From: Candidatus Bathyarchaeota archaeon
GTDB taxonomy: Archaea; Thermoproteota; Bathyarchaeia; Bathyarchaeales; Bathycorpusculaceae
DNA length: 64,000 bases
Direction of reading: 5' to 3'
NCBI GenBank assembly: GCA_963775895.1
Contig: CAVZKL010000017.1
Span: 160,001-224,000, forward strand
Shown: in pieces, positions 4,016-22,947 of the stretch
Layout of the letters: each line of letters begins with the position of its first letter
Numbering within the stretch: the first letter of the stretch is position 1
Position numbers and translations under genes: made by a program
Notes under the pieces: model-generated
What the model saw: the letters and a program-made list of their open reading frames with translations, nothing else
Told to the model about the DNA's origin: nothing
The model's database searches: none

Positions 4016-4099
4016 CGTGCATATTTGGATCCTAATATTCATGATACATTGAAACCGAGGAGGGTAGGGTACACAATAAGCTTTTTTTCAGCGAATAAA
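4016..4099. repeat. Non-coding element, copy 1 (inverted copy at 22496..22578)
   Basis: 4016..4064 is the exact reverse complement of 22530..22578 (49 bp). GTACACAAT and CAGCGAATAAA blocks are also shared, with identical 11-nt spacing between them. Confidence 0.95.
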
Positions 4100-4152
4100 T
4101 CCCCGCACACTTCACCGTGCAACTAAGCCCATATGTCGAGCATCCTCACTTT

Positions 4153-5521
4153 CTAAGCTTCTCGGTCAACGATCTTCTTGATCTTTCTCAACGCAGGACT
4201 CAGCCTGACAGGATATCGACGAACACGCGTAAGCCTCTTGTAATCGTCAGGGAGTCGCGATAGGTTCTCAATAGTTGCTTCTCTGATCTCTTCCAGACTA
4301 GGCGCCTCACGCGAGGATCGTCCTCTTTCCATGACTCTAGTCAACAAAGATTCCCCAGCCACCTTCTCATTCTCCAACCCGATCACGTCCTGAACGTACC
4401 TTCCGTCCTCGTCGCTCTGCCTGAAAACCTGTTTCCTCCCCGGCAACGTGATCTTGCCCTCGCTCAATTTCATCGCCGGAACAAAAACCCCACGCTCAAA
4501 CATGCCCGACAGTTTATAGACAACGTCAACATAAGGCCTGTCAAAAGAAGTACTCATTCGCGTGCCAACTCCAAACGCATCGATCATCGGCGCCCTTTCT
4601 CAACAAATCCGCGATCACAAACTCGTCCAAATCTCCGGTCGCGAAGATCTTAACGTACTCAAGACCATGAGAATCCAGTATCCTCCTCACTTTCCTACTC
4701 AAACCCAGCAAATCACCGCTGTCGAGCCGAACGGCGTTCAACCTACGCCCCTCCTTCTCAAGCTCTTTAGCGACGACGGCAGCGTTCTCGGCGCCCTTCA
4801 ACGAATCGTAAGTGTCTATGAGCAGAGTTGAACTGTCCGGAAACGTCCTTGAAAAAGCTCTGAAAGCATCTATCTCATGGTCGAAGGACATGACGTAAGA
4901 ATGCGCCATAGTTCCAAACACAGGAATATTGTACTTCATGCCTGCAAGAACGTTGGAAGTACCGTCAGCTCCGACGAGATAGCTACACCTCGCCGCCTTC
5001 ATTCCAGCATCGGTTCCCTGACTTCTCCTCAGACCGAACTCCACCACAGACCTGCCCCGCGCCGCACAGACCACTCTGGAAGCTTTCGTAGCTAACATGG
5101 TCTGCAAGTTGACCGTGTTAAGAATGAACGTCTCAATCAACTGAGCTTCAATCATGGGCGCAGTGACCCTAATCAGGGGCTCGTGCGGAAAGACCACAGT
5201 TCCCTCACGAACGGCCCACACTTCACCCGTGAACCTGAAGTCTTCAAGATAATCAAGAAACTCCTCACTCAGCTTCCGTTTCCTCAAATACCCGATCTGC
5301 TCTTCACCGAACCTCACGTTTTCCAGATAAAGCAACACCTGCTCCAGCCCGGCGAAAATGAAGTACGACCTGTTGGGAGGCAGTTTTCGAATGAAAAGAT
5401 CAAACGTCGCGACTTCATTCCTCTCGTTTTCAAAATAACTTGCACACATTGTCAACTCATAAAAATCGGTCAAAAGATCCATGTTCGTTTCACTAACAAA
5501 GTCAAAGCCAGCTTTCTTCAT
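4153..5521 (-). CDS. pncB: Nicotinate phosphoribosyltransferase (apparent frameshift near 4590)
   Basis: 'LLTDFYELTM', 'EFGLRR', 'GTMAHSY', 'VRLDSGD' in ORF 4541..5521; C-terminus 'IDAFGVGT...VYKL...KITLPGRKQV' in ORF 4153..4587. Confidence 0.92.
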
Positions 5522-5650
5522 TCCGCACCCTCAGAAGCAATATTTTTGGCTGTTCACTTTAACCTATCTCTCCAAGCACTACAAAGTGTTTTTCCAGTGA
5601 ACGTTTATCTGGCTTCTTCACAGCCTTCCATCTGAGCTGGGGAGCTACGC

Positions 5651-6364
5651 ATGTCTATTTTGTCAACCAAAAAACTCAGACGTCTTTCCCTCGGTTTCCC
5701 CACTTTAGACGATGTTTTTACAGGATTTGAGCTCGGCGATTTTGCCGTCACACAAGGCAATGCAGCGCCATTCATGTCCTCGGTTCTTTCTGTCCGTGCT
5801 CAGTTACCAAGCGAGCGCGGAGGTTTAGAATCATCTGCCGTTTTCATCGATGGCGGCAACTCGTTTAGCCCCTATGAAGTTGCGGAAACCGCACGCGATT
5901 ACGGCTTGGATTGCAAGGCAACCTTGGAAAAAGTGTACGTTTCAAGGGCTTTCACCGCCTACCAGCTTTCATCACTAGTTCTTGACAAGGTTTGTTCCGT
6001 TCTGCGAAAGACTAGGACTAGACTACTGATCATCTCAGACATCACCTCTCTGTTTCTTGATCGCGACATGCCCAAACTTGAAGGAAGAGAACTCTTCATG
6101 AAACTCTGTTCAAAACTTTCTGCAATTGCATCCGAAAAGCAGACGATCGTTGTCGTCAGCTATTTTCCGCAAAGTCGATCCAGACAGAGTTTGTTCTTTG
6201 AAGCTGCTTTGTTCGGAAAATCCAACGTACTAATCACGTTAAAGAGGCGCGGACAAGCAGTAAGTGTCTTTTTGGAAGACCATCCTCACATCAAACCTTT
6301 CTGCATGGATTTTACCCCTGATAAACAGCACGGTCACATTTATGGAGGCACGAGTTTTGGGTAG
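5651..6364 (+). CDS. Inactivated RecA/RadA-fold ATPase associated with PolB2
   Basis: 'LSLGFPTLDD', 'VFIDGGNSFSPY', 'VSRAFTAYQL'; Walker A lysine absent; first gene of the PolB2 operon. Confidence 0.8.
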   Translation: MSILSTKKLRRLSLGFPTLDDVFTGFELGDFAVTQGNAAPFMSSVLSVRAQLPSERGGLESSAVFIDGGNSFSPYEVAETARDYGLDCKATLEKVYVSRAFTAYQLSSLVLDKVCSVLRKTRTRLLIISDITSLFLDRDMPKLEGRELFMKLCSKLSAIASEKQTIVVVSYFPQSRSRQSLFFEAALFGKSNVLITLKRRGQAVSVFLEDHPHIKPFCMDFTPDKQHGHIYGGTSFG

Positions 6365-6626
6365 AACCGTTCCGTCTTACAGACAAGCTTTAGAAGAGGA
6401 GATCATACGTTGGGAAGGCTTCAAGAGAGCTCTGCGAGACAAAGACGAAGAAGCGTTTGACAGAATGATGAACGCGTGCAGGATCTACGCGTCAGCGGGC
6501 GGCATGGCGACAAGACCTATACTCACCGAGGCGATGTTCATGTCCATCTTGCTGAGCCATCGGAAAGAACTAATGGAGATCCGGGAAAGTCTTGAGCGAC
6601 TTGAAAAAAGGCTTCGTCAAACTTAA
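6357..6626 (+). CDS. Small helical PolB2-associated protein (arCOG07300-like)
   Basis: 'GRTVPSYR...W..FKRALR..D...FD.M' signature; sits between the RadA-like gene and polB2; TTG start at 6357 inferred (ORF track 6264..6626). Confidence 0.8.
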   Translation: MGRTVPSYRQALEEEIIRWEGFKRALRDKDEEAFDRMMNACRIYASAGGMATRPILTEAMFMSILLSHRKELMEIRESLERLEKRLRQT

Positions 6627-8892
6627 TCCCGTTCGAGGATGGCTGTTTGACGTTTACCCTTCAGGCCCGGACGAGATTACTATCTGGCTTATTACAGAAA
6701 ATGGCGAACGCGTTCGATTCATTGATAGGTTTATCTTTAGAATTTATGTTTCTGGAAATCTTTCTGACCTCAACCGCTTAGCGGAAAAGACCAAGAGCAA
6801 CAATCTGATAACAGATTGTCGTCTCGTTGAAAAGAACGCCGATTTCATGGAAGGCCACAAGCACAAAGTCTTGGAAGTGAGCATCAAAGATCACACGAAA
6901 GTTTCATATTTAGCCACAGATCTGTTCAGGTTTGGCAATAACGGAAGCCTTCGTTTCTACAATGTTGATGTCACAGTTCCACAAGCCTATTTGTACGACA
7001 AAGATGTTTTCCCATTCGCACATGTTATGGTCGTCGCCTCTGGAAAACGACTTTGTTACGACTTGCTTGATTCGGTTGAAAGCGTCGATTATTCTCTCCC
7101 CAAACTGCGCTCGCTATGGCTCAAGGTGAGTGTCAAGAAAGAAGGAGTTTCACAAAAACCGACTGACAAGATAGATCGCCTTTCTTTGGAACATGATGGA
7201 AAGACAACGGTTATCGATGACGCCAATGAAGAAACGAAGATCCTTGAGCTTGTTAAAGCTTTCAAGAATTTAGATCCTGACGTGGTTTTCACGGAAGGTG
7301 GAGACTCCTTCTCGCTGCCCTATCTCGCTCATCGCGCCTTCGTCAACGGCGTACTGGATCGTTTTGTACTAAGCAGAGAAGACATTCCTTTGAAATTGAT
7401 CAAAGGCAAAGGAACAACCTTCTTCTCTTATGGTCGAGTTTACCACAAAGCTCCGATGCAGAGACTTTTCGGCAGAGTGCACATCGACGTTAACAACACG
7501 TTCATCTATTCCGCATGCGGTTTAGAAGGACTCATTGAGGTTTCAAGAACCTGCAGAGTTCCCATCCATCGCTCTTCAAGAGCTTCTATCGGAACAATAA
7601 TGTCTTCTCTACAGCTTTACACCGCGTGGAAAGATAGCACTCTGATTCCGTGGAAAAAGAACGAGCCAGAATCTTTCAAAACAGCGTGGGAATTGTTTGT
7701 TGCTGATCGCGGCGGTTTCATTTTTGAGCCCAAGATCGGCTTTCACACAGATATTTTCGAAGTTGACTTCACCTCTATGTTTCCTACACTAATGCTAACG
7801 CGGAACATTTCAGCTGAGACTGTCCTCTGCAAGTGCTGCCCAGACTCCAACAACCGAGTTCCAGAACTAGGCTACAACATTTGTGAAAAGAGGGAAGGGA
7901 TCGTTCCTAAAACTCTGAAGTTGCTCTTAAGGAAACGTTCGAGGTACAAGAGTCTGATGAGGGAAATTGAAGACCCGAACTTAAGGCACGTTTACAGCAT
8001 GCGGCAGGCTGCTCTTAAATGGATTTTAGTGACATGCTTCGGCTATTTAGGGTACAGAAACGCGCGTTTCGGAAAGGTTGACGCTCATATCGCCGTATGC
8101 GCTTTTGCCCGCGACGCATTATTGAAGACAGCTAGACTGGCCGAAGAGCATGGTTTTGAAGTTATTCACGGCATTGTAGATTCGCTGTGGCTGAAGAAAA
8201 TAAACGCCCACCCTGGAGAGATCGTTGATTTTTGTCATGAAACTTCAAAAGCCATTAACGTTAACTTGGGTCTTGAAGGGAAGTATCGGTGGATCGTTTT
8301 TCTACCCTCGAAAGTCTTGGAAGACGTTCCAGTTTTAAACAGGTATTACGGCGTGTTTGAGAACGGCGATATTAAGCTCAGAGGTGTTGAGGCCAGACGA
8401 GGAGACACGCCCATTCTAATTGTCAAAGCTCAGATGGAAATGATCAGGAAACTCGCAGGCGCAAACAGTCTGGCAAGTTTCAAAGAAAAAATCCCTGAAG
8501 CTTTGCACGTATTGAGAGCTTATGCAGATAAAGTGGTAGAAGGTGAAGTGGATTTACAGGAATTGCTAATTACCAAAAGAATCTCAAAAACGCCTACGAA
8601 CTATAGCCATGACGTTCTTCAGGCAATCGCGTCAAAACAGTTGGAGAAGGCAGGTTTTGAGGTGCACGCAGGACAAACCGTCCAGTATGTGATGACGAAT
8701 GTCGCATCTAAATGGGTCAATGAAAGGGTCACTGCAGAGCAACTCCTGAAGTCCAGCACCCATTACGACGTTAAGGAGTATATTAAACTCCTAATTTCAG
8801 CAGGAGAAACTCTATTCAACCTGTTCGGATACAACAAACGCTTTATTGAAACCGAAGCTCTATTCAATGAACGCCAGCAGATGCTTTCATAA
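6592..8892 (+). CDS. polB2: Family B DNA polymerase, PolB2 (Dpo2) group
   Basis: Motif A 'VDFTSMFP', motif B 'KWILVTCFGY', degenerate motif C 'HGIVDS' (instead of YGDTDS), degenerate exonuclease domain. Confidence 0.9.
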   Translation: MSDLKKGFVKLNPVRGWLFDVYPSGPDEITIWLITENGERVRFIDRFIFRIYVSGNLSDLNRLAEKTKSNNLITDCRLVEKNADFMEGHKHKVLEVSIKDHTKVSYLATDLFRFGNNGSLRFYNVDVTVPQAYLYDKDVFPFAHVMVVASGKRLCYDLLDSVESVDYSLPKLRSLWLKVSVKKEGVSQKPTDKIDRLSLEHDGKTTVIDDANEETKILELVKAFKNLDPDVVFTEGGDSFSLPYLAHRAFVNGVLDRFVLSREDIPLKLIKGKGTTFFSYGRVYHKAPMQRLFGRVHIDVNNTFIYSACGLEGLIEVSRTCRVPIHRSSRASIGTIMSSLQLYTAWKDSTLIPWKKNEPESFKTAWELFVADRGGFIFEPKIGFHTDIFEVDFTSMFPTLMLTRNISAETVLCKCCPDSNNRVPELGYNICEKREGIVPKTLKLLLRKRSRYKSLMREIEDPNLRHVYSMRQAALKWILVTCFGYLGYRNARFGKVDAHIAVCAFARDALLKTARLAEEHGFEVIHGIVDSLWLKKINAHPGEIVDFCHETSKAINVNLGLEGKYRWIVFLPSKVLEDVPVLNRYYGVFENGDIKLRGVEARRGDTPILIVKAQMEMIRKLAGANSLASFKEKIPEALHVLRAYADKVVEGEVDLQELLITKRISKTPTNYSHDVLQAIASKQLEKAGFEVHAGQTVQYVMTNVASKWVNERVTAEQLLKSSTHYDVKEYIKLLISAGETLFNLFGYNKRFIETEALFNERQQMLS

Positions 8893-8969
8893 CAATGGAT
8901 TCTATCGAAAAATCGCTAGTCTTAATAGTTTGGTGCGTCATTGTAATTTTTTCTAATCTGGTGTAACAA

Positions 8970-9932
8970 GTGGCACCTGTAATTCGCATGCAAAACCTGA
9001 CAAAAAAATACGAAAAAGTAACAGCAGTCGATCATCTGACCATGGATGTGGAAGAAGGCGAAATACTTGGGTTGCTGGGGCCTAACGGTGCAGGGAAAAC
9101 CACTGCGATCCTAATGCTTGCCACTGTAATTAGACCTACAGAAGGTACGGCCTTTGTAGGGGGATATGATATACGCAAGCAGCCTGAAAAAGTGCGAGGC
9201 ATGCTAGGCATCGCGTTTCAGGAACCGAAGATGCTGTGGGTTTCTACTCCATGGGACCTGGTCAACTGGCACGCGAAAGTCTGCGGTCTTTCAACTGAAG
9301 AAAGGAAACGGCGGGTCAAAGAGGTGTTAAATGCCGTGGAGATGTGGGACGCGCGACGAAAGAACGTCAGCGAACTTTCGGGTGGCATGCGAAAACGAGT
9401 TGAAATGGCCAAGGTATTGGTTCAAAGACCGAAGATCGCGATAGTGGATGAGCCCACTGCGCAGATCGATATCGTTGGCAAGCACAGAATCTGGAACATG
9501 CTCCTAGAACTTCGAGACGAAGGCTCGACGATCATTTTGGCGACAAATGAGCTTTACGAAGCTGACCAGCTCTCAGATCGCGTTGGAATATTACACAGGG
9601 GAAGACTATTGGTATGTGACACTCCGAAAGAGCTGAAAGACAGTATCGTGGGCGGCGACATAATGGACCTGCAGTTTGAGAAGGACGCACCTCCGGGGAT
9701 AGTTGTTGAACTCAAGACACTCCGAGAGGTCGCTGATATAACACAGCTTAAACCGACTAGCATGCGCATCTACCTGAACAAGGTCGAGGAGATTGTTCCG
9801 CGAATAATGAACCTTTTCGCCAAGAAGAACGTTCAGATCACGTCTGTGAGAATGAGTGAACCTAGTTTGGATGACGTTTTCGCACACTATACAGGTCTCA
9901 CGATTGAAGAGGCACAGAAGGATGAGGAGTGA
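8970..9932 (+). CDS. ABC-2 type exporter ATP-binding protein (DrrA-like)
   Basis: 'GPNGAGKTT', 'LSGGM', 'IVDEPT'. Confidence 0.92.
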   Translation: MAPVIRMQNLTKKYEKVTAVDHLTMDVEEGEILGLLGPNGAGKTTAILMLATVIRPTEGTAFVGGYDIRKQPEKVRGMLGIAFQEPKMLWVSTPWDLVNWHAKVCGLSTEERKRRVKEVLNAVEMWDARRKNVSELSGGMRKRVEMAKVLVQRPKIAIVDEPTAQIDIVGKHRIWNMLLELRDEGSTIILATNELYEADQLSDRVGILHRGRLLVCDTPKELKDSIVGGDIMDLQFEKDAPPGIVVELKTLREVADITQLKPTSMRIYLNKVEEIVPRIMNLFAKKNVQITSVRMSEPSLDDVFAHYTGLTIEEAQKDEE

Positions 9933-9948
9933 GAAATAGACGAACAAG

Positions 9949-10716
9949 TTGCTCCTTGTCATTGAAAGGGACGTTCGTCTTTTCTTTCAGTACAAGTTCA
10001 TAATTATTCTGAGAGCTATCTGGTTCGTTGCACAGATTGTCTTGTTCGGATTGATTGCGTCCAACATGATGAACGTGAACGTCGTCAAAGACTACTTCCG
10101 TTACTATGTTGCGGGACTTTCGGTAATGACATTGTATTCCGCAGCAATATTCATCGGCTTCGACATCTATGAAGAAGCTGAACACGGCGTTTTTGAGTAC
10201 TTACTCAGTCTGCCGGTTTCTAGAAGACAGCTCGTTCTCGGCAGGTCGATAGGTGGAGGATTGAGGTCATTCATATACGTAGGACCGCTAATCGCCATTT
10301 CACTTTACGTCATAGGATCACTTAATCCACTTCAGTTCCTCGTTTCATTACTTGCGTTGTTTCTGTTTTCATTTGGCGTCTCCGGATTTAGCATAACGTT
10401 GGCAGTCATGATAAAATCAAGTGACAGATTCGACATACTAATGGGAGTATTAGACGCGTTGATCGTTCGTCTTAGCACAGCTATGTATCCTTTGGTAATT
10501 GTAATGAAAGCCAACCCTGCTTACGGTGAATTGGCCACGTTTAATCCCGTGACCTTCGCAGCAGACCTATTCCGTTGGGGAACAGGCCTAGAAAGCATAA
10601 TAACGATCAGCAACCCGCTGTTATCCTTGTTGGGCGTTGTTATTTTCTTCGGTCTATTCACCTATTTCGGCGTCGTGATCTATGAGAGACGTATTGAAGG
10701 CGGTGGATGGCGATGA
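9949..10716 (+). CDS. ABC-2 type permease
   Basis: About 6 TM helices, 'EYLLSLPVSR', 'NPVT'; downstream of the ATPase. Confidence 0.88.
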   Translation: MLLVIERDVRLFFQYKFIIILRAIWFVAQIVLFGLIASNMMNVNVVKDYFRYYVAGLSVMTLYSAAIFIGFDIYEEAEHGVFEYLLSLPVSRRQLVLGRSIGGGLRSFIYVGPLIAISLYVIGSLNPLQFLVSLLALFLFSFGVSGFSITLAVMIKSSDRFDILMGVLDALIVRLSTAMYPLVIVMKANPAYGELATFNPVTFAADLFRWGTGLESIITISNPLLSLLGVVIFFGLFTYFGVVIYERRIEGGGWR

Positions 10717-11495
10717 AGAAAGGAATCCTCCACATCGTTGAGCATGATCTGACGAACTTTTTCCGCTACAAGTGGTGGCTGGCAGGATTAATCGCCATGA
10801 ACCTTGCTGACTTATTCATAATGGCAATAGTTTACAACAATATGCTCAAACCAGACATAACAACGGAAATCAAGAGCTACTTCGACTTCTTTGCTCCAGG
10901 CTTAGCAGTGACAGGTTTGTTTGCATCGGCGTTTATGATTGGACGTGAAGTCAATGTTGAGAGACGAAGAGAAATTCACCATTACATGTTGAGCCTGCCG
11001 ATGTCACGAATAGAACTGGCGGTCGGACGAGTGATCTCGGGAGGCGTACGAGGATTGATCTACATGACCCCCTTGCTTCTGACTTGTTTTGTGTTTCTGG
11101 GGTTTCCATCATTGCCTCAGTTGCTTCTTATTTTGGCAATGCTCTTCCTTTTGGCGATGGGAATTTCGGGATTGAGTATATCAATCGCGGTGTCAACAGG
11201 AAGCTTTGAGAAATTCGTTACGGCGAGAGGCTTGGTATACTATACACTTTTCTTTTGTAGTAGCGTTTTCTACCCTCTGTCGGTCATTCAAAACCTAGGC
11301 CAGACTGGACAGTTTCCAAGTATTCTCGTGAGCTTTGCTGAAGTGAATCCTCTGAGCAGCGGTTCCGACATGATCCGCAATTTCTTGCTCGGCTATCCAG
11401 ATTTCTCGCAATACTGGATGGTCTCAGCTCTGATTTTTGCTGCAATATTCACCGGCTGTGCCATAGTCGCTTATATAAAAATCCTTGCGAGATAG
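10707..11495 (+). CDS. ABC-2 type permease (second subunit)
   Basis: Paralogous to the preceding gene: 'YMLSLPMSR', 'FYPL', 'NPLS'. Confidence 0.88.
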   Translation: MAMKKGILHIVEHDLTNFFRYKWWLAGLIAMNLADLFIMAIVYNNMLKPDITTEIKSYFDFFAPGLAVTGLFASAFMIGREVNVERRREIHHYMLSLPMSRIELAVGRVISGGVRGLIYMTPLLLTCFVFLGFPSLPQLLLILAMLFLLAMGISGLSISIAVSTGSFEKFVTARGLVYYTLFFCSSVFYPLSVIQNLGQTGQFPSILVSFAEVNPLSSGSDMIRNFLLGYPDFSQYWMVSALIFAAIFTGCAIVAYIKILAR

Positions 11496-11624
11496 AGTGT
11501 CGACTTTGACTTAGTCAAGTTAACGTGCACTTGATCCCGTGTTTTGACGACCACGTTGGCAAGCATCAACTATATCTGCATAAACCACAGAATCTATTGT
11601 TTGTCGTTATTGCCAGGTGAAAGA

Positions 11625-13327
11625 TTGAGGACGGGCGTCGAACCTCGAGAGGCAGGATTAATTCGTGAAGTCATGAGTTTCTGCAGTCATGCTGCCAAAC
11701 CCTGCCAGATCGTTGCTGCTTTGATCAGAAGTGACTATGCATCGATATACCCGACGGCTCGAACGGTCATGCAAGTTCTAGCCGTGATCCGAGATTTTCA
11801 ACCAAGACTAATGAACTACGTGAAGGTCATTGGAGGAGTGAACGTTTCAGTCTTGGGAGTAGACCAATGGGTCTTTGAAAGAGACATTGACAGGGGATTC
11901 CTAGGAGAAGCCTTGGCTGGCGCTCTAGTTTTTCCTTATTCCACATTGATGAATGAAGGCTATTTTCGCCTGGAGGAGAAAAAACTAAAGAAACGGCTGA
12001 TAACGGAACTTCTCGAGAGTCTTATTCTTGATTTCCCTGAACTATCATATGATCTGCGCATCAAGCCCGAGTACTTCATGTACGAAACGATGCTTACGAG
12101 AGGGCGACTATTTCCTCCAACGTTGTACGCGCTTGCGGACTTGATGACTGACAGGCCGAGAAGATATCGAGTGTTCCCTGCGTGGTTTTCTTGAAGCCGA
12201 CGAAAGAACTCGAACAGAATGGAATACTCTACAAAACCGATGGTTATTTGAGAATCTCTAAAGAGTTTGTTGACCGTGTCCGTGCGCGAAAAATGCGATT
12301 CATGGACCTCTTCAGAACAGGACAAAGAGCTTTGTTTACGGCTGCGCTGGGGCTTTTCCCGCAGATCTTTGATGCTATGTCCCGTAATCGCAACGAGTTT
12401 CTGAAACTCCAGAAGGCTTTCTTGGACGAATCTAAGATCATGCAGAGCATCGAGGATCCAGAGAACTATGTGTATGTTCCCACATCGAGCGGGCTCGTCT
12501 CCCTTGCAAATAGAATGGACATTGAAGCATATGCAAGAAAAGAATTATCCACTGACAAAGATGCTCAGATCAAAATCAAGAGCATCGGAGGCATTCTGAA
12601 CGACGTTTATTCGGTCGAGTTGCTAACGAAGGATCGCCATAGAAAGGTGATAGTGAAGAGATTTAGGGAGTGGGCAAATTTCAAGTGGTTCCCGCTTACA
12701 CTATGGTCAGCTGGAACAAGAACATTCGCCATGGCGGGAATATCGAGATTGGAGAAAGAATGGGCTATTAACCGTCTGCTCGATTCTCACGGTTTTGCCG
12801 TTCCGAAATTGCTGCATATCAGCCCTGCAGAACGTCTTGTGGTCATGGAGTATGTCGAGGGCGAAAACCTGAGCAAAGTTGTCAGACGCGTTATGAGTGC
12901 AAGAAATGACGAGGATCTTAAGGTTGACTTCGAGATTATAAGGAGAGTCGGTGGAACGTTTGCTCGTGTTCATTCTTTGAACGTTGCTCTGGGAGACACA
13001 AAACCAGAGAATGTGCTGGTGGGAAAGAACGGTGAAATTTGCCTGATGGATTTCGAACAGTCTAGCCGAAACGGTGATTTGGTATGGGATATCGCAGAGT
13101 TCATGTACTACTCTGGGCATTATGTGTCTCCGCTTCTTGACACAACGAAGATTCAAATGTTCGGTGAGACTTTCGTGAGAGGCTATTTGGAATCGGGTGG
13201 AAAAGCCAACATCGTCAGAAGTGCGGGTAGCCCCAAGTACACGAAGGTTTTCAGTGTTTTTACGTTTCCACACGTCATGTTCGTTCTTTCCAATATTTGC
13301 AGAAAAGCGAAGGAGTTGAAGGCGTAG
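11625..13327 (+). CDS. Kdo/RIO/Bud32-like kinase with large N-terminal domain (apparent frameshift near 12160)
   Basis: Kinase elements 'VIVKRF', 'VMEYVEG', 'LGDTKPENV', 'MDFEQ'; N-terminal part in ORF 11544..12194; TTG start after GGTGA SD. Confidence 0.7.
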
Positions 13328-13329
13328 CG

Positions 13330-14668
13330 ATGGTACAGCTTGAGACACGTCTGACTTTCTACGGTGGCGTGAATGAAATTGGTGGAAACAAAATACTCCT
13401 GAAAGACGGCGATACCAAGATCTTCTTCGATTTTGGCATGTCATTCGGAATGAAAAGACTGTTCTACTCGCCTCCCTTTCTTTCGCCGAAGAGCGAAAAA
13501 AGTCTTCAGGAATTCGGCATTCTACCAAGACTGGACGGGGTTTACAGATTTGATGAGAAACAACCAGATGTTGATGCGATCTTCATCTCTCACGGGCATT
13601 TGGACCATTGTGCCTACCTCTCCTTTGTAAAACGCGAAATTCCAATATATTGCGGCCAAACTACCAACATCATTCTCCAGTCATTGGGAGACATAAGACG
13701 GACGGACCTAGAATTCGACGTGCGAGGGCTGAATTTCAACACATTCAGAACTGGAGAAAAAATACGCTGCGGCAATTTGGAAATCGAGCCAATTCACGTA
13801 GACCACTCAGTTCCCGGCGCGTATGGTTTTGTCGTCCATACTTCGAATGGATCGCTGGCTTACACGGGCGACTTCAGGCATCACGGCGCAAAAAGCGAAA
13901 TGACTGATGATTTCACTGAGAAAGCATGTGAATCCGAGGTCAGGACGATTATTACTGAAGCTACGAACATGACAGGCGCTTCAGTGTCTACTGAACGCGA
14001 GGTAGAAAGCAAACTGGACGCCGTCGTTAGTAATTCAAAAGGGATTGTGCTTGCGGAGTTTGCTTACGCAGATGTTGATCGCTTCAACAGTTTCCTCCAC
14101 GTAGCCAAAAAAAACAACCGATGTCTCGCGATTTCCCTCAGGCAAGCCTATCTGCTGGAAGCACTTCGTGCTGACAAGGGCCTGCGGCTTCCGAACATTA
14201 ATGATGAGAGCATCTTGATTTTTCGAAAGTCGAAGACCAGCAGTTACAAATGGGAAAAACAGTTGGCTGATCGATACGCTGACAAGGTAAAAGGGGCGTT
14301 CGAACTCTCGAAGCAACAGGGCAATGTCATCTTGGCAATGTCTTTCTATGATCTTGAAGAGCTTGTTGAGATCCGACCGAACGCCGGGAAGCTGTTATGT
14401 ACTGTCCGCGTCCGAACCGTTCAATGAGGAAATGGAGATAGACTTCGAAAGATTGGTGAACTGGCTCGACCATTATGGACTTCCGCAGTATCACGTGCAC
14501 GTTTCAGGACACATAATGCCCCTGCAGTTAAGGTCGGCTATTGAAAAAATCAATGCAAAAACTGTTTTTCCTGTTCACACTGAGAACGCGCAATTGTTCA
14601 ATAGGTTCATGCAGGATTCAAAGAGGAAAGTGATCTTGACTGAGAAAGAAAAGGAATACAGGCTCTAG
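13330..14668 (+). CDS. MBL-fold beta-CASP / RNase J-like hydrolase (apparent frameshift near 14380)
   Basis: 'GGVNEIGGN', 'SHGHLDH', 'VDHSVPGA', 'YTGDFR', and in the second frame 'HVSGH', 'PVHTE'. Confidence 0.85.
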
Positions 14669-14755
14669 CCTATCAGAAGTGATTGCTCCGAGAGTCGAGT
14701 TGATGGACAAAGGGTTTTATGGCTAGAAGAGCACAATATAACAAGAGTTGATAGA

Positions 14756-14995
14756 ATGCCGATGGCGTTTGTTCTCATCAACACTGAACTAGGAACTGAA
14801 ATGGACGTTCTGAAAAACGTGAGAAAAGTGAAGGGGGTCGAAGAAGCTTTCGCTGTCTATGGAACTTATGACATAGTCGTTCGTGTCAAGGCGGACACGA
14901 TGGAACGCCTCAAAGAAACCGTGTCAGCTCAAGTTAGAAAGGTTAACAATGTTAGAGCCACTTTGACGCTGATGTCTTCAGAGGATTCAAAGTAG
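14756..14995 (+). CDS. Stand-alone Lrp/AsnC ligand-binding (RAM) domain protein
   Basis: 'AFVLINTE.G', 'VYGTYDIVVRV'; no HTH. Confidence 0.9.
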   Translation: MPMAFVLINTELGTEMDVLKNVRKVKGVEEAFAVYGTYDIVVRVKADTMERLKETVSAQVRKVNNVRATLTLMSSEDSK

Positions 14996-15049
14996 CATCC
15001 AAATCCCATTTTTTGTCCTTTTGAAGGAAATATCTGTTAGAAGCGTCAT

Positions 15050-16232
15050 TCAATTTGAATAGACTCCGAAACGCCACGATTCTTCTTTCTCGTAAAGGCT
15101 CCTGAGCACATCAGTGGCTATTTGTCTATCGACTGTGAGAAGCAGTTTTGCGATGTGCTTGCACAGCCTTTTCGTTGAATTGATCTTCTTCCAATCAGCG
15201 CAGTCGTGAAGCATGAGATTTGTCTCCCATGTCTATTGTTATATGGTATTCTTTCAACGTCGCTTCGATCAGGTCCTGGGTTTGTTTCGTCACTCGTAAC
15301 TCGATGTCTTCGATTTGTTCCGCTCGTTTCAACCGTTCTGGCGAAACAAAGTGGGCAATCAGGCTAGTGAAATCCATGTTTCTCGGAGGAACAAAAGCTT
15401 CGAGCGTGGAGCATGTCTGTTCCTCTTGCTTTTTGCGATAGTCTTCCAATCTCCTCTTTGCGTCCACTTGCTTCGGTTCGATCACTCCGAGAATCTCCAT
15501 TATTTGCAGGCAGTTTTCAACGGCGTAACCGTGATAATGGTTGTTGAAGTAGCCATAGACCTTGTCAACTTTGTTTGCAACTTCGTTGACTTTTGGGGCC
15601 CACGGCTGTAATTCCTCTACACTGTACAGGTAGTTGTACCATGGTCCATTGCCGTGTCCGTGCCATCTAAAATAGGCAATGTTGGACGTGACGTGAATTT
15701 CTGGGGGAAGCAGTGGTTCGTCGACTATCGCGTAGGCCACCCTGTATTTTTCAAGAAGCGCCCACGTCTCGTTCTTCAGCCACGAAGGGTGACGAAACTC
15801 AACCGCAAATCTGATGTGGGTTGGGAGGAGCTTGAAGAAGTCTTCCATTTGTTTGGGTCTGTAGTCGAATCTTGGAGGAAGCTGGATCAGTATACAGCCT
15901 AGTTTCCCGCTTAGAAAGAGAGGCTCCATCAGTTCCGTGAACTTCTCCAAATCCTTTTCTATTCCCTCTGCTAGATTCAGCTTTTTTTCATGAGTGATCA
16001 GCCCAGGCAGTTTTGCCGTGTACACGAAACTCTCAGGTGAGTACCGGGCCCAACCCATGACTGTACCCTTGTTTGGATAGCGGTAGAAAGTGGAGTCTAT
16101 CTCAACGCTTTTGAAAACGTTTGAATACGCTCTGAGCATACTTTTGTCCGACTTTGAATAGAATGGACCTATCCACTCTTTGTAGCTCCAGCCAGAAGTT
16201 CCCAGAAGTACCTTGTCGGAAGCTTTAATCAC
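15050..16232 (-). CDS. DUF72 (YecE-like) protein with C-terminal SWIM-like Zn finger (apparent frameshift near 15220)
   Basis: 'GTSGWSY', 'VEIDSTFY', 'QLPP', 'EFRHPSW', 'YFRWHG', 'FNNH'; the alternative frame continues 'LHDCADW...LCKHIAK' to TGA at 15050. Confidence 0.8.
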
Positions 16233-16237
16233 TTTAA

Positions 16238-17174
16238 TCACTCTATTATTGATTTCATTTTTTCTGCGACTTCTGATAGAGCTATCGTAGGTTCCTTCGG
16301 GGATTTTCCTCAAACATTCCGCCACATGAATTCTCTCAGTCTTGCTCAGATCGAATAGTTTCCATCCTTGACTGTGTATTAGCTGCTGTTTCGTCGCAGG
16401 GAAGCATGCGTCTTCTCTTAGCACCTCTTCTAATGAGGCGATTCCAGTTGAATTTGTTATCGATGGGAACTTGCCAGTTTGTTTGTAGGACTTCAACCTG
16501 ACAGCGTCTTTGTACATTCTTACAAAGTGAAAGCTCATGACTATCTTCTTGGATCTGCTACTGGTCGCCTTTCTATCTATTTCTACTAATTCCCCGTCAG
16601 TTGGTTGGTAAACGTTGTGTTCACCCTTGCCGAACAGCCTTGTGTACAGTACGTCTGAATCGTAAGCTGGGGTCTCGCCTTTCGAAAGGTCAACCGAGTG
16701 AATGATGTTAAAGTCCTGCATCACCTTGAGAAGTCCGCTAGGCAGATCGGCGCTTGGAGTTCTTCTGATTTCGAGCGCCAGTCTCAGACTTCCCAGATTC
16801 AGCGAACGCAGGGTTTGGCGAACGTTTTCAATCGTTGTTTCATTTAGTTCAAATGCTGGAGGTGCTTGAAGATGAAGGATTTCAGCGTTCAGCACATTGC
16901 AAATCCGTTTCATCTTCTCAAAGGATTCGAAAACCTCCTTTTCAGGCTTGAGTCTGTGCTTATGCGTAATCGATCTGTGTGCTCTGACCGAAAATTGAAA
17001 GTCGGTGAGTACCATTTTTCGCCAGCTCTCTGCTTCAGCAAGAGGAGGGATTTGATAGAAGGTCGAGTTGACCTCCACAAAATTGAAAACTTTCGAATAC
17101 GCTACTAACGACTTTAATTTCGGAACTTGAAAGTACGCCCACCCGCCAGCTCCAATGAGGTATTCTGTCAACAA
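16238..17174 (-). CDS. Divergent DUF72 protein with C-terminal DUF2795-like helical domain
   Basis: 'IGAGGWAY', 'VEVNSTFY', 'YTRLFG'; tail 'FPATKQQLI...LRKIPEGTYDS'. Removing one base near 16282 gives a natural end 'SLSEVAEKMKSIIE*' at 16238. Confidence 0.75.
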
Positions 17175-17322
17175 ACGTCTCCTTGTAATTATAGTTCATT
17201 GACAGTCTCAAAAACCTTGGGATTGGGCGATCGCGGTGAGTGTTTAGCCTTGATACTGATCTCGGATTATTATGCGATGTAGAGTGCGATGATTCAGAAT
17301 GTATAATTGGTAGTATGGACTC

Positions 17323-17580
17323 ATGCTACTCACGATAGCGATGACGACGACTACGCGACAGGATCGCCGAACGCAGGTGCTTTTTCACACTCTTGGTCTC
17401 AGTTGTATAGGCGGCGCAATATTTCTGCAGATTTTGGTTTTCACTGACATACTCACTAATGGCTATTTTATGGCGGTGGAACACAACTTCGTAATTTTGA
17501 CTTTTGAAGTGCTTCTGACGGTCTTCTCGTTCATCTATTTTATTTATATGTATCAGCGCTTCATTCGGTCCATAAGATAA
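17323..17580 (+). CDS. small membrane protein (2 TM)
   Basis: Two hydrophobic helices and a basic C-terminus. Confidence 0.6.
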   Translation: MLLTIAMTTTTRQDRRTQVLFHTLGLSCIGGAIFLQILVFTDILTNGYFMAVEHNFVILTFEVLLTVFSFIYFIYMYQRFIRSIR

Positions 17581-17695
17581 ATCAAAGTGTTGATTCTTTT
17601 TGATGACTGTTTTCAGATTTTGTTACGATCGATGGAAAATGTTAAATAACGTTTCCGCAGAACACGGTCAGTAGTCGCTCTCTGATGGTGAAGTA

Positions 17696-18433
17696 ATGAG
17701 GGCTTTCCGCTTGATTAGACTATTGCTGCTCGTATTGCCTCTGACTTTAGTTTTGCTCAACTCCGCGAGTGTACTTGCCGCGGAGGAGAAAATGAAGAGT
17801 TTTTTCAATTCTGAGATGACTGGAGTCACGATTGGGGTCAAGGCAACGCAACTCGTCGAACCGGGGCAAAGCGTGACTGTAGTTATGACTGTGAATACAA
17901 CTTTCCACGTACATATTGAGCGAATCGGTCTGGAGATATTCGGCTTTGTAAACGGCACGGACCAGCTTTCAATAGGAAACATGTCCGATGGCGACTTTGA
18001 CCTGAACGACACTCTGAAAGAGTACGTTATCACAACCACTGTTCCAAACAATGTGTGGGGTTCCACCTACGGAGAGATAAGATTAACCTACTCAGTCAAC
18101 ATGGGTGGGGCTATACTCCAATTTCCGAATATCATCAACGGTTTTCCATTAACCCCCGTGGAAAACACATTAGTCAAGAGCCTTGAAGAACAGATCAAGA
18201 GCTTGAATGAGAGCTATAGCCAATTGTCCCAAATGTATGCGAACTTGACCAACGCGTTCGTCAACCTGAACCAAAGCTACTGGAATCTACAAGGAAATTA
18301 TACTTCTGCACAAAACAGCCTAGGGGAACTGGACAACACCCGGCGTCTATCGACGATCTTGGCGATAACTACAGTTTTCTTCTTAGCTACAACGGTCTAT
18401 ATCGTAGTGAGAAGACCAAGAGATTACTGGTAA
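17696..18433 (+). CDS. Secreted, C-terminally anchored surface protein (beta-sandwich plus coiled coil)
   Basis: N-terminal signal peptide, N-glycosylation sequons, heptad region, C-terminal TM followed by 'RRPRDYW'. Confidence 0.75.
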   Translation: MRAFRLIRLLLLVLPLTLVLLNSASVLAAEEKMKSFFNSEMTGVTIGVKATQLVEPGQSVTVVMTVNTTFHVHIERIGLEIFGFVNGTDQLSIGNMSDGDFDLNDTLKEYVITTTVPNNVWGSTYGEIRLTYSVNMGGAILQFPNIINGFPLTPVENTLVKSLEEQIKSLNESYSQLSQMYANLTNAFVNLNQSYWNLQGNYTSAQNSLGELDNTRRLSTILAITTVFFLATTVYIVVRRPRDYW

Positions 18434-18498
18434 ATCGTGCTTTGCAGCAGAACAGTCTAGCACGTTTCAATATTGAAAAATTCGCTTGAATCCGTTCC

Positions 18499-19792
18499 CT
18501 ACTTCTCGTGAAGTTTCTGAGCTGCGACGAAGGCTAGTCCATTTTTCGTGAGAGCTTCCGCGGTTCTGTTCACAGCATCGTGTTTGTCAAGGTAGTTCAA
18601 TAGCAGCTGCGGCATCAGTCCTTCCATCGAGAATATCTTTTTTGGGCCTGAAGTAGTCGAGGATATCCGATGCATGCTTTCTCTTGACTTCGGTTGCTGG
18701 AAGCCCACCTTCATGTTTTGCGCCGATGTTTCTGACATGGTCTGCAAGTTCGAGAAGTTCGCTAGTTCGGTCGTAAGGCTCTCGGACTATGCTCTTGTAC
18801 GCTTCCGTTATGTGATGCTCGATGCGAACTACGTTTTCAAAGTCAAAGAAGTCTCTCACGTAAGCAGCAAGTTCTATCGTCTGATTATTAACGGAGTTGG
18901 AAAGGTTGAAGCCGATAAGGGGCGTCGACCCATCTTCCCTGCTGAAGAGTTTCGCCGTCAATAACGTCCAGAGTATAGAGTACGGGTTGTCAATTCCCAG
19001 AAACACCGATATCTTGAATTCAATGTCGATGCCTAGCTTACGTAGCCAATATCCGAGCAAAACGGTTCCAGCGTTCGTGTTTAGTACTTGCGTGACCCCG
19101 TACTCAGTGTAGTAGTGCAGGAACTCGTCGACCCATTTCAACGAATACTCGTTCGGTGCTCCTACACCTCCGAAGTAGCCTGTTATCGTTTCGGGTCCAC
19201 CCAGGTGAACATTTATTGGTTTGCCATCCGGCCCCGATAGGGTTCCCTTCGTGTCCAAAGTCTGCACGTAAGAAGCTCCGATGATCTGCATTGACGCGGC
19301 GAAAGCAAGAATGTCGCCGTCTTCCACCTGTTCCTTCATTGAGCGTACGCGAATGTACCGACCGGGCATCAGTTCCTGTTTTTTGATGGCTTGCTTCGCT
19401 TCCTCGATGAGCCATGGGAAAAAGTTGAGGGCGCTGATTTCCAGGGTGACGGGAAAAGATTCGTCAAACTTCATCGATTCCGCTTTTTTTCCGAGGATCT
19501 TCTTTCTGTAATCGTGTATACTAATAAAAGCTTCTTTGTCGCGTTGATTGCTGAGCCATTCAAGATCCTTTGTGAATGATGATTTCTTTTTCTTGAGCCT
19601 GTTCATCAGGTTGTCAATCTTGCGAGCGTCTTCGGCTTTCTTGTTAATCTCTTTGACGCCGCCATACTTGTCGATGATTTCGAGCAGTCCGTTAACGAGG
19701 GGATTGTCCTTTTTCAGCAAGAACTTGTTAATTTCATCGAGATTTTGGTGGTCTATGCGTAGTTTGTCCCTAAGGTTAATCAAGATATTCAT
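18499..19792 (-). CDS. Conserved-looking hypothetical protein (~430 aa, apparent frameshift near 18625)
   Basis: Long ORF 18587..19792 with globular composition and Gly/His motifs ('NVHLGGPETITGYFGGVG', 'RIEHHITE', 'KHEGG'); C-terminus in ORF 18499..18747. Confidence 0.75.
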
Positions 19793-19922
19793 CCTCTCTG
19801 TTGCGATAACCTGTTCACAGCTTATTGTTTATAGTATTTTCGGAAAGAACGAATTCGATTGTTTTTTCGACAAAAATGAACTTAAATAATATAAGACCGA
19901 TGAACGTCTAAGAGGTCGTGGA

Positions 19923-21407
19923 TTGCTTATGTTCAAGCCTGAAGGAATTTTCCCCGCTTTGGTGACACCGTTTACCGATGATGGAAGTGGCGTTGATGAA
20001 CAAAGGCTGCGAGCGCTAGTTGACCATTGCATCGAGATGGGGGTTCACGGAGTCGTTCCATGTGGAACGACCGGCGAGTCTGTTAATTTGACGGTCGAAG
20101 AGAAGAAACGGGTCATCAGGATCGTGGTTGATGAGGTCAACGGAAAGGTTCCGGTCATAGCTGGGACAGGTTCCAGCGGGACGGACCAGACTGTTGAAAT
20201 GACGAAGTATGCCAAGGACGCTGGAGTGACGGCTGCTTTGATCGTCACGCCTTATTACTTGAAGCCTGCGGACCGCGGAATTTACGAACACTACAGCACC
20301 ATAGCGAGTGAAGTTGACTTGCCGATAATATTGTACAACATTCCGCAGTGCACGGGGTTGGATTTGCCTTGGCAGATGGTGGAAGACCTTGCCCAGATAC
20401 CGAACATCGTTGGTGTCAAAGACAGCAGTGGACAGTTGAAGTTCATACTGGCCGTTCTGGAAAAGGTCAGAGACAAGATAAATGTGCTTTGTGGACACGA
20501 TGAAGTTGTGATGGCTGGTCTAGCTGCGGGTTGTTCTGGCGCCATACTTGCCAGTGCTAATGTGATCCCTGACGTTTGGGTTCAAATGTACAACCATGTC
20601 AAAATGGGTGAGCTTCAGCAAGCTCGCGAGCTTCAGTACAAGATCCAAAAAATAGCCAGGATAATCGCCGGAAGCGGAGCGGTTGGAACAAAAGAGGCTT
20701 TGAACATGATGAAAATCAAGGTGGGGCCCGTCAGAAAACCTCTCAGTGTGGGTGGAGAGTTGACGTATGAATCAAGAGAGGAACTGCGTCTTGACCTGGA
20801 AAAGATCGGAAAGATAAAGCCTAGGGTAATATCCTTCGAGATGCCAGAGAAGCCGATCGAAGAACGGTTCGCGGCAGTCGAGATAACACCCGAGATCATC
20901 AAGGACTGGAATTTGCGAGTCGGGGAAGCTTTGGCGGGACAGGGTGCAGAAGTGGCACACATCGATCTTCTGATCGGCAGAAAAGATGGTCCTGTTGCTG
21001 CGGCTCTTGCGACTGCGAAAGCGACGCCGGAATCGGGACACGAGCCTTTGCTTGCAATTCTGGAGCCTAATCTTTCCGTCAAGCCTGTGACTCTGATCGT
21101 GCCAACTGTTACTATAACGAGTATGCGGCAGGCAAGTATGGTTTATGGTCCGGCGCAGACTGCGGTGGCAAAAGCCGTTGTTGACAGCGTTGCAGATGGG
21201 ACAATTCCCAAAGCCGCAGTAGACGAATTGGTGATAATCGCGAACGTGTTCGTTCATCCGACTGCGGTCGATAGACAGAGAGTCTACATCAACAATTACA
21301 AGGCGATGCGACATGCTATTCGCAAAACTGTGGAAGGCAGACCGAGTATTGACGAGCTCATAGAGAACAAGGATCGTTCGAAGCATCCGTTTAAGTATGG
21401 TCCGTAG
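19923..21407 (+). CDS. DapA/NAL-family class I aldolase fused to formaldehyde-activating enzyme (Fae) domain
   Basis: N-terminal domain 'GTTGES', 'YNIP', 'GVKDSSG'; C-terminal domain from ~20919 'VGEALAG.G.EVAHIDLLIG...GPAQ.AVAKAV.DSV..G.IP...NY.A...AI...HPF'. Confidence 0.9.
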   Translation: MLMFKPEGIFPALVTPFTDDGSGVDEQRLRALVDHCIEMGVHGVVPCGTTGESVNLTVEEKKRVIRIVVDEVNGKVPVIAGTGSSGTDQTVEMTKYAKDAGVTAALIVTPYYLKPADRGIYEHYSTIASEVDLPIILYNIPQCTGLDLPWQMVEDLAQIPNIVGVKDSSGQLKFILAVLEKVRDKINVLCGHDEVVMAGLAAGCSGAILASANVIPDVWVQMYNHVKMGELQQARELQYKIQKIARIIAGSGAVGTKEALNMMKIKVGPVRKPLSVGGELTYESREELRLDLEKIGKIKPRVISFEMPEKPIEERFAAVEITPEIIKDWNLRVGEALAGQGAEVAHIDLLIGRKDGPVAAALATAKATPESGHEPLLAILEPNLSVKPVTLIVPTVTITSMRQASMVYGPAQTAVAKAVVDSVADGTIPKAAVDELVIIANVFVHPTAVDRQRVYINNYKAMRHAIRKTVEGRPSIDELIENKDRSKHPFKYGP

Positions 21408-22216
21408 TGAGCGCAGTGATAGACGACCTGATTGTCGAGGGGCAGTACGTACTTCTCGAATTGAGTCAGCGCAAGACCTACTTGGTCAAGGTTGAAAAGG
21501 GCAAGAGTTTTCACACGCACAAAGGGTTTGTGACGTTGGACAACTTGATTGGAAAAGCGTATGGCTCAACCATATCGAGTAGTCTGGGTTTCGAGTTTGT
21601 TGCTCTGAAACCCATGCTTCGTGATTACATTTTGAAGTGTGCGAGGCAGACGCAGATCATGTATCCCAAGGACATTGCTCTGATAGTTATGTTCAGTGGA
21701 ATTGGACCTGGGAGTCGTGTGGTTGAAGCAGGAACTGGTACGGCAGCGATGACTACGGCCTTGGCGCATTATGTTAAGCCGAGTGGCAAGGTTTACAGTT
21801 ACGAGATCAGGGAAGAATTTCGGGTAACGGCTGAGAAGAATCTTGTCAGGGCTGGGTTGATTGATTTTGTGGAATTGAAGAACAAGGACGTAACGGCAGG
21901 AATAGATGAGGAAAAAGTGGACGCTGTGATTCTTGACCTCGCTGTTCCATGGCTGGTGGTTCCACGTGCATACGATGCTCTGAAAGCCAGCGGGACGATA
22001 GTCTCGTTCAGTCCAACGATAGATCAGGTTGTGAGAACCGTTGACGCGCTCAGGGAGAATAGCTTCACTGACATCGAGACCGTTGAATGTTTGATGCGGG
22101 GTATGCAGGTGGAAATCGGAAGAACTCGTCCCCAGACACTGATGACCGGTCACTCAGGTTACATCACGAACGCGCGCAAGAAAGTCAGGACCGGTGCATC
22201 AGACGAGCCAGCGTAA
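21407..22216 (+). CDS. trmI: tRNA (adenine-58-N1)-methyltransferase
   Basis: 'TQIMYPKD', 'VVEAGTGT', 'AVILDL..PW', 'SFSPTIDQV', 'GHSGY'. Confidence 0.93.
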   Translation: MSAVIDDLIVEGQYVLLELSQRKTYLVKVEKGKSFHTHKGFVTLDNLIGKAYGSTISSSLGFEFVALKPMLRDYILKCARQTQIMYPKDIALIVMFSGIGPGSRVVEAGTGTAAMTTALAHYVKPSGKVYSYEIREEFRVTAEKNLVRAGLIDFVELKNKDVTAGIDEEKVDAVILDLAVPWLVVPRAYDALKASGTIVSFSPTIDQVVRTVDALRENSFTDIETVECLMRGMQVEIGRTRPQTLMTGHSGYITNARKKVRTGASDEPA

Positions 22217-22495
22217 CTGGGTTCTAAATGTGAGTATTTGCATAGAGGATTCTTCTAGAAGCTTGTTTCAGAAACGATAAATCATCTGGTTCTGCGTATC
22301 ATGATTCTGTAGAGAGAAATTCAGGAGTTGAAAGGAGAGGGGAGACGTGGATTGCGCATCCATTTAGGGGTGCGCGGTCCAATAAAGCCGAGGACTTTCT
22401 AGTTGCGTGCGCGTCACTCGAGTTTGGATTATTGAACTGAGAAATCGTTTGTCTCATGCGGGTTTTGAAATTCAAAATGGTCGTCAAGGTTTAGG

Positions 22496-22578
22496 TTTAT
22501 TCGCTGTTTTTTCAGCCATTGTGTACCTCCCCTCCTCGGTTTCAATGTATCATGAATATTAGGATCCAAATATGCACG
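22496..22578. repeat. Non-coding element, copy 2 (inverted copy at 4016..4099)
   Basis: Same alignment as copy 1; intergenic between trmI and the small ORF at 22948. Confidence 0.95.
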
Positions 22579-22947
22579 AGTGCTCTCGGTTTTTTCGCCC
22601 GTGAATGTGAGGGTACTTTCTGCTTGGGCTGGGTGAGTCGGCTGAGATGAGGTGCAAAATTGGCTGTCAAGTGCCGTCCGTGTAACTCTGAGCTTTCATC
22701 TTTCTCTTCAATCTAATGCCTTTTCATCATCCGGCATGAGAAAGTTATCTGCGTCAGGGATAAAAACGTTCGCAAACTCCTCTGCAAAAATCTTCTGCAC
22801 GAATCGGTGGGTCCGAGCTTGCTAGCCGTGATACCGCGTTTTCACTTCTGGGATGACGTATACTGTTCTGGAATACACATTTTTGATTCATAAATGAGTT
22901 AAGTAGCCTTAGCCTATTCTCAGCGTAAACAATGGGGGAAAAATACG

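Follow-up and report, generated by a model that had tools for sequence, protein, structure and literature searches.

A dispersed repeat derived from a virus-related gene in a Bathyarchaeota genome as a candidate pac-like packaging-start site

How does one short sequence come to lie twice, in opposite orientations and beside unrelated genes, within 18.5 kb of an archaeal chromosome? The question is raised by a 64,000-nucleotide stretch of DNA (termed here the window) from a Candidatus Bathyarchaeota genome (assembly GCA_963775895.1, contig CAVZKL010000017.1, positions 160,001 to 224,000), for which an earlier reading (termed here the original prediction) described a duplicated non-coding element of ~85 bp that might be an origin box, a recombination site, a small RNA or an operator. 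Here it is argued that this element, as judged by sequence comparison, reproduces the opening ~45-85 bases of a virus-related gene, in all likelihood that of a small terminase (terS). With moderate confidence, it is read as a dispersed pac-like packaging-start site--that is, a site where the host chromosome would be cut by the terminase of a virus or satellite and packaged from there in the downstream direction.

The inverted match itself is exact: positions 4016-4064 are the reverse complement of 22530-22578 at 49 of 49 bases, and an inverted-repeat scan of the window recovers the pair as arms of 53 nt at 98% identity (4016-4068 and 22526-22578), the other 24 inverted pairs shown being much weaker (20-32 nt, 71-90%). 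Similarity extends to CAGCGAATAAA (4089-4099 and 22496-22506), giving ~85 bp in all, and both copies are indeed intergenic and flanked by unrelated genes. Their parts, with G000 denoting the genome that holds the window, are:

4016..4099, + strand: copy 1 of the repeat, major tail subfamily; by sequence comparison, from the 5' end of a terS-like gene
4021..4038, + strand: 18-bp palindrome of copy 1, with one mismatch; perfect in many relatives and the most conserved block across genera
4045..4064, + strand: second block, TACATTGAAACC plus a G-run, which sets the direction of the element
4065..4099, + strand: tail specific to this genome and different in relatives
22496..22578, - strand: copy 2, whose 83 nt are identical to the start of the intact terS-like frame G000:C22:54200 (-)
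22556..22573, - strand: palindrome of copy 2

What was described as a duplicated pair belongs to a much larger family. A BLAST search of G000 (1.77 Mb in 28 contigs, 89% complete) finds 36 copies, to which a profile scan adds none and a half-site scan three doubtful matches. The genes of the window are archaeal, and the named homologues obtained with a same-genus genome belong to Candidatus Bathyarchaeia. Over 35 nt, 21 copies are identical to the master sequence, 13 differ from it once and 2 twice. (The copies at C2:5553 and C16:2758, whose long flanks agree at ~90%, are perhaps a strain duplicate.) Copies are solitary, have a constant tail, and neighbour unrelated genes in all orientations; the gaps between them within contigs range from 1.3 to 113 kb, no even spacing at headful distance being seen. 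Aligning the family also revises the anatomy first proposed: of the supposed 28-bp 11-6-11 palindrome only 18 bp are conserved, the outer CGTGC arm varying among copies; the 'diverged 11-nt spacer' reflects two tail subfamilies (28 and 7 of the 36 copies, with 1 other); and the weaker similarity reported on the far side is not recovered as a common flank. As a separate observation, GCGCGC occurs within 200 bp of 11 of the 36 copies, where ~6 would be expected from genome density with intergenic bias left uncontrolled.

The family reaches beyond this genome. Nine of ten same-genus genomes hold 3-14 matches, and in a comparison of 62 loci (six listed matches being left out) these share a common core of ~46 bp, made up of the 18-bp palindrome, TACATTGAAACC and the G-run, with tails that vary by subfamily. 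A strict core pattern is found in 8 of 401 genomes of the class; a looser two-block pattern, whose counts include overlapping matches and hence are not copy numbers, is found in 44 of 201 family genomes and 17 of 70 genera, and nowhere in reversed controls. Other genera have element variants of their own. Two of these deserve mention: in G222 and G381 the motif often forms head-to-tail doublets with a period of ~60-63 bp (L233, L237, L241, L244, L254, L255); in G016 an amplified deletion form joins the palindrome to the G-run (L232, L235, L239, L243, L246, L253), which suggests a minimal signal. A tail family carries ~20 bp of a tRNA 3' end that has been copied to several loci (L015, L020, L030, L035, L041, L047, L052, L065).

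Where did the repeat originate? One of its tail families continues into a reading frame: read from its TTG, the core encodes LDPNIHDTLKPRRG, with which members of a protein family of Bathyarchaeia begin. The one intact frame of this family in G000 encodes 123 residues and lies on C22; 7 of the 36 copies have a tail like that gene, and 28 have a derived tail. The term 'non-coding' thus holds for the copies, which are intergenic, and fails for their origin, which is the start of a reading frame. In a metagenome survey (the best 80 of 139 loci), 71 of the 76 loci with the core have a frame of at least 109 residues, in varying contexts. The name terS-like rests on gene position and size. Distant family members lie directly before Terminase_6N genes in all five viral contigs found and in five of six distant genus loci examined, with a portal gene next in four; and 10 of 32 family matches, in genomes searched with both queries, directly precede a large terminase gene (terL), many others being solo, satellite-like or at a contig end. 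The palindromic motif opens the terS-like gene in L125, L126, L127, L251 and L256, portal-linked proviruses keep only a GAAAA..G-run remnant of it, and genomes G048 and G381 each have a terL-linked copy plus dispersed gene-less copies of the matching variant. The encoded protein is small and all-helical; fold searches with two models returned nothing at E <= 0.001, and its Atlas neighbours are largely viral, some being DUF8136 proteins at 16-29%. On gene order and size, the source gene is likely a small terminase.

A terS-like subclade lies directly before a tyrosine integrase at eight loci (L190, L196, L201, L204, L208, L209, L225, L227), which carry primase-like or helix-turn-helix (HTH) genes (PriCT in L196) and in whose 6-kb flanks no capsid gene is seen; by analogy, this layout is like that of phage-inducible chromosomal islands (PICIs). 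In a tree of 38 rows, 15 of 17 solo genes, including that of G000, fall on a supported branch near the satellite-like genes. Because the root is not fixed and branches are long, an order running from virus to satellite to solo gene is only suggested by this tree. Intact solo genes, far from any terL, are under purifying selection. TerL matches occur in 5 of 10 same-genus genomes and in 35 of 61 family genomes. Some features of these loci are recorded in their own right: in the virus lineage comprising L256:400-15400 and L125-L129, terS and terL stand at the end of the tail module, a tape-measure-like gene is very short, and an ABC-ATPase/GNAT gene follows terL; in G048, host genes interrupt a viral module of the L256 type, which could be decay or domestication resembling that of a gene transfer agent; and in a metagenome contig a heliorhodopsin gene adjoins a solo terS-like gene (L146:4955-5758).

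Is the core conserved as protein or as DNA? Among 64 distinct intact frames (at least 110 residues long, with a core score of at least 27), synonymous variation is 0.157 in the 14 core codons compared with 0.316 in the other 103, with 13 of the 14 falling below the same-residue mean; moreover, the motif is retained in copies that lack the gene. These patterns bear out the earlier suggestion that the conserved blocks reflect selection, and point to an element that is constrained at the DNA level and probably a protein-binding site with a palindrome. Among the functions first proposed, an operator for a dimeric regulator therefore comes closest: the palindrome is real, constrained and probably protein-binding. 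Its origin is a terminase-adjacent viral gene. Two further proposals, an origin box for Orc1/Cdc6 and a small RNA (or leader) present in many copies, fare worse and, taken together, are very improbable. Origin recognition boxes (ORBs) do resemble the GAAAC plus G-run, and one copy lies ~1.9 kb past cdc6; however, the native repeats before the genome's single cdc6, TTCCA(G/T)(A/T)GGAA, differ from the element in both sequence and spacing. As for a small RNA, the element has no Rfam match (over the window, Rfam yields one tRNA only), its folding is unremarkable, with z-scores from +0.36 to -1.63, and no RNA run is among the public runs listed as holding it. (The AT-rich gap before cdc6 at G000:C18:25400-25750, with its three native repeats, is likely the chromosomal origin.)

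What distinguishes the DNA around the copies is a one-sided strand skew. On the element strand, the keto skew (G+T-A-C) at 0.1-3 kb downstream averages -0.157 and is negative in 32 of 35 copies, compared with -0.022 upstream and 0.001 +/- 0.014 at random. It peaks at -0.24, fades by 4-5 kb, and is seen at fourfold sites in co- and anti-oriented genes alike. Conversely, when the 31 strongest skew tracts of G000 are taken as the starting point, 17 begin at a copy of the right polarity and 1 at a copy of the wrong polarity, the random mean being 1.6. (Strong tracts with neither a copy nor an integrase gene are those at C2:10500, C15:25750-43750, C18:57500, C18:98250, C18:108750, C27:42500 and C28:12000; these may mark lost copies or a second signal.) Within the window the corresponding tracts are:

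4100..6000, + strand: tract downstream of copy 1, poor in G on the + strand (GC skew -0.25, -0.19)
20000..22495, - strand: downstream tract of copy 2 (GC skew of the + strand +0.21, +0.19, +0.11)

The skew follows the copy. When relatives' DNA is compared with the empty orthologous sites of G000, changes G>A plus T>C versus the reverse number 1577:1133 downstream and 1525:1372 upstream, with 2 of 11 loci going in the opposite direction. The tract of copy 1 shows 63:15 and 65:28 against relatives without a copy there, and that of copy 2 shows 63:29, 51:19, 58:32 and 43:34 against four relatives. Likewise, in viral contigs the skew switches on at the motif (L125, L126, L129, L251, L256): fourfold sites of terL are 6-8% G+T in L125 and L256 compared with 34-57% in five palindrome-less provirus terL genes, and the skew is absent in five proviruses without the palindrome.

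A C/A-rich top strand is what results when the bottom strand has been single-stranded (C>T, A>G). That strand would have been exposed most near the motif and on the downstream arm only, which fits a DNA end at the motif that is resected 5'->3'. Had the break been repaired in place, skew of the opposite sign would also be expected upstream, and none is seen. Survival of one arm fits headful packaging from a pac site toward terL and delivery to a new cell. If a fork or a transcript set out from the motif, the skew would have the wrong sign, a further point against an origin box. Strand polarity would fit, by contrast, a fork moving toward the copy, as expected if the small protein bound the element and made it a polar barrier to replication forks, so that forks arriving from downstream stall with the lagging-strand template left single-stranded. 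This is nonetheless improbable: in the complete genome G001 the orientations of the copies follow no order, copies change place between species, and the motif lies inside a terminase operon.

The main rival to packaging is a nick with in-place gap repair. Here the element would be a viral control site (a late-operon operator or nick site) to which the small protein or some other viral factor binds. The skew would come from a nick in the top strand and the repair of the ensuing gap, with neither packaging nor transfer, and copies would be spread by repair templating or kept as decoys. That the palindrome heads the terS-terL operon, that intact solo genes far from any terL are under purifying selection, and that a nick with a 5'->3' gap would yield the same strand polarity all speak for it. 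An operator alone does not, however, explain repeated amplification in several genera, nor why viruses and integrase-bearing satellites share the motif, a packaging signal being the usual cis element so shared (according to the available text of PMC8494744 and PMC12829572). This alternative is accordingly considered unlikely, if less so than any other named here.

How, then, do copies move? Relatives have 17 junctions at which a copy lies between two genes with orthologs; G000 is syntenic at 11 of these and lacks the copy in all 11, and the other 6 are non-syntenic. Full sites mostly exceed empty ones by ~100-370 bp. The flanks that paralogous copies have in common are short (left, median 56 bp, 60/96; right, median 66 bp, 79/96) and occur in mixed combinations; in other words, cores stay near-identical while flanks turn over. 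The genes that neighbour the window pair are:

2659..3891, - strand: Obg-like GTPase gene, left neighbour of copy 1
4153..5521, - strand: nicotinate phosphoribosyltransferase (NAPRTase) gene, in two frames, right neighbour of copy 1
21407..22216, + strand: TrmI-like tRNA methyltransferase gene, downstream neighbour of copy 2
23218..23511, + strand: winged-helix gene, upstream neighbour of copy 2

The GTPase flank of copy 1 is also the left neighbour of a copy in G005 and G009 and of a half site in G004, and the copy-2 site is empty in G001, G002, G005 and G008; judged by the flank shared with G005 and G009, copy 1 is the older of the two. That shared flank, together with public contigs that reach both copies, also disposes of the concern that one copy is an assembly artefact. 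(Contigs from public runs, one of which may be the source sample, enter both window copies from the inner side, no listed piece spanning a whole copy; a weak joint 22282-22672 in runs X1 and X4, with 20 letters on its short side, may be an empty copy-2 allele.) The GTPase/NAPRTase junction at copy 1 is a rearrangement breakpoint, at one end of a ~70-90 kb inversion whose other end lies beyond the contig. In G001 and G005, on the other hand, the genes from NAPRTase past TrmI as far as the HTH gene are colinear, and in G002 and G008 colinearity extends across the site that lacks copy 2. Hence, contrary to what had been conjectured, the window copies do not bound an invertible cassette: where relatives lack copy 2, 4100-22495 has the same orientation with respect to the genes on the far side of that site.

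This bears on a broader possibility, that the element is a symmetric site for a tyrosine recombinase of the genome, which would shuffle flanks and invert segments. Left and right flanks are indeed shuffled between copies; at five of the six non-syntenic junctions the shared flank also bears a copy in G000; an inversion breakpoint falls at copy 1; the G004 half site stops at the palindrome centre; and G000 has 10 integrase matches. Yet relatives show no inversion of the window segment with respect to its right flank, no inversion joint appears among those shown in public contigs, breaks are no more frequent than in the control, and cut-and-repair or homologous exchange explains the shuffling equally well, while the one-sided kilobase skew and the terS origin go unexplained. 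For a Xer-dif-type site in particular, conserved 11-6-11 arms are not found, the outer arms being variable. Site-specific recombination is therefore as improbable as a fork barrier.

Slightly more doubtful still is a miniature inverted-repeat transposable element (MITE), a repetitive extragenic palindromic (REP)-like element or a passive remnant of decayed satellites, which was moved by a transposase in trans or simply left behind. Short, intergenic, multicopy sequences that vary in presence and absence are what this predicts; however, the copies have no terminal inverted repeats (TIRs) and no target-site duplication (TSD), shared-word length being 5.22 compared with 5.14 +/- 0.18 in shuffled sequences. 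Moreover, Y1 (PF01797), IS110 and DDE_Tnp_1 transposases were not found in the 89% complete G000 (other families were not searched), and neither the near-identity of cores amid changing flanks nor the directional changes that follow the copy are expected of a remnant. Nor do the copies look like a CRISPR repeat or a casposon end: they are solitary with a constant tail and form no repeat-spacer array, and in place of an intact cas1 only a weak 52-codon Cas1 match was found.

The packaging-site reading can be spelled out as follows, binding, cutting, packaging and the copy-making route being all steps that we infer. The small protein would be TerS and would bind the motif; the TerL of an infecting virus would cut in a zone around it; headful packaging would run from the pac site toward terL, and the fragment would be delivered to a new cell. 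There the packaged end would be resected 5'->3', leaving the bottom strand single-stranded and subject to deamination, which would render the top strand C/A-rich. New copies would form when short end fragments, of about the lengths of flank that copies share (medians of ~56 bp left and ~66 bp right), are joined into new sites, and the site would spread because it leads each transferred fragment. In short, a virus-derived site has been amplified across the chromosome and is probably recognised by a terminase. The fuller account--a self-spreading viral pac site that escaped via satellites, multiplies without a transposase and arose repeatedly from different viral terS lineages within one archaeal family--is tentative, and somewhat more likely wrong than right.

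Several observations weigh against packaging. The data consist of contigs only, in which no virion DNA ends are seen. No TerL was found in G000 (89% complete), and thus TerL would have to come from infecting viruses. The terS-like protein has no significant Pfam, PHROG, PDB or BFVD match to known TerS, terL lies beside the gene in 0 of the 80 metagenome loci (only 36 of the 76 core loci having at least 1.5 kb downstream), and the exact genus pattern has 0 matches in viral contigs. The sequences in the codon test are related, so that its p of 0.001 overstates significance, and synteny breaks at 6 of 17 copy junctions compared with 19 of 39 other wide gaps (p = 0.40). The skew, too, is imperfect: it is already same-signed in the 250-500 bp upstream of copies; 14 of the 31 strong tracts have no copy, four of these lying over integrase genes; it is weak in several relatives (G001 -0.001, G005 -0.011; in all, negative at 36 of 58 with a mean of -0.036), all but vanishes in G381 as well as in the viruses L127 and L128, and reverses sign after ~2 kb in L126 and L129.

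Other features of the window are as follows. A RadA-like gene is followed by a family B polymerase gene (5651-8892), a pair that resembles the archaeal PolB2 repair operon. The NAPRTase (4153-5521), a metallo-beta-lactamase-fold protein (13297-14668) and glycine cleavage P protein (49958-52778) are each split over two frames, and one-base differences in public contigs (e.g., at 14383) imply that some split frames may be assembly errors; for the same reason the single 659-residue frame with two DUF72 domains (15195-17174) may be two genes. A dihydrodipicolinate synthase (DHDPS)-family domain is fused to a formaldehyde-activating enzyme (19923-21407).

If the packaging reading is right, this is a class of repeat spread by terminase instead of transposase, and provides, at the sequence level, candidate pac sites and small terminases for viruses of an abundant uncultured archaeal class. 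On the fuller, self-spreading account, tens of copies would make passing viruses gene-transfer agents for the whole chromosome, each copy leaving a kilobase mutation trail that records past transduction. Two questions would become testable if packaging is right: whether host pac-like sites are selected or accidental (as raised in the available text of PMC11260489) and on what scale archaeal viruses move chromosomal DNA. More generally, genomes alone would then reveal DNA-end processing, with the polar strand skew as its marker; and even aside from packaging, it is unusual for a repeat to bias mutation on one strand of the genes around it over 4 kb.

Comparison with known systems places the element as follows, features of ORB, dif, REP and MITE sequences being taken as general background. 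Like MITEs and REPs or REPINs, it is short, intergenic, multicopy, non-autonomous and palindromic; unlike them, it has no TIR, TSD or matching transposase that could be found, and has ragged ends, a coding origin and a polar skew. The DNA uptake sequences of Neisseria and Haemophilus (compare PMC2397512) are likewise a transfer signal that may accumulate by promoting its own transfer, though they differ in numbering thousands rather than tens, whereas the copies here are virus-derived, would be tied to capsid packaging rather than competence, and arrive as insertions with flanks. PICIs and Staphylococcus aureus pathogenicity islands (SaPIs), which according to the available portions of PMC8494744 and PMC12829572 are satellites that have a TerS and a pac site of their own and are linked to lateral transduction, are paralleled by the capsid-less, integrase-bearing elements described here, which carry the terS-like gene with its motif and, by analogy, would rely on a helper TerL; in contrast to those islands, these are archaeal, the gene lies directly before the integrase, and first the gene and then the bare motif appear to have escaped the satellite and multiplied. 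A repeat such as this was not found in the literature, including the available text of two Bathyarchaeia papers (PMC10848311, PMC11697101), a mention in supplements or subscription papers being possible. According to the available text of PMC11226127, pac of P22 lies in terS and cuts fall over a 120-bp zone, close to the shared-flank lengths here, and host pac-like sites direct packaging and transduction of downstream DNA (PMC11226127 and, likewise in part, PMC11260489). Both signals are short, directional and within a small terminase gene, with look-alikes on the host and effects on downstream DNA. The Salmonella pseudo-pac sites, however, are as described there ~9-10 degenerate 17-mers kept in place, whereas the element reported here, a candidate site, exists as 36 near-identical copies of 45-85 bp that stem from the gene, come and go between species, have multiplied in several genera and are accompanied by a kilobase mutation trail.

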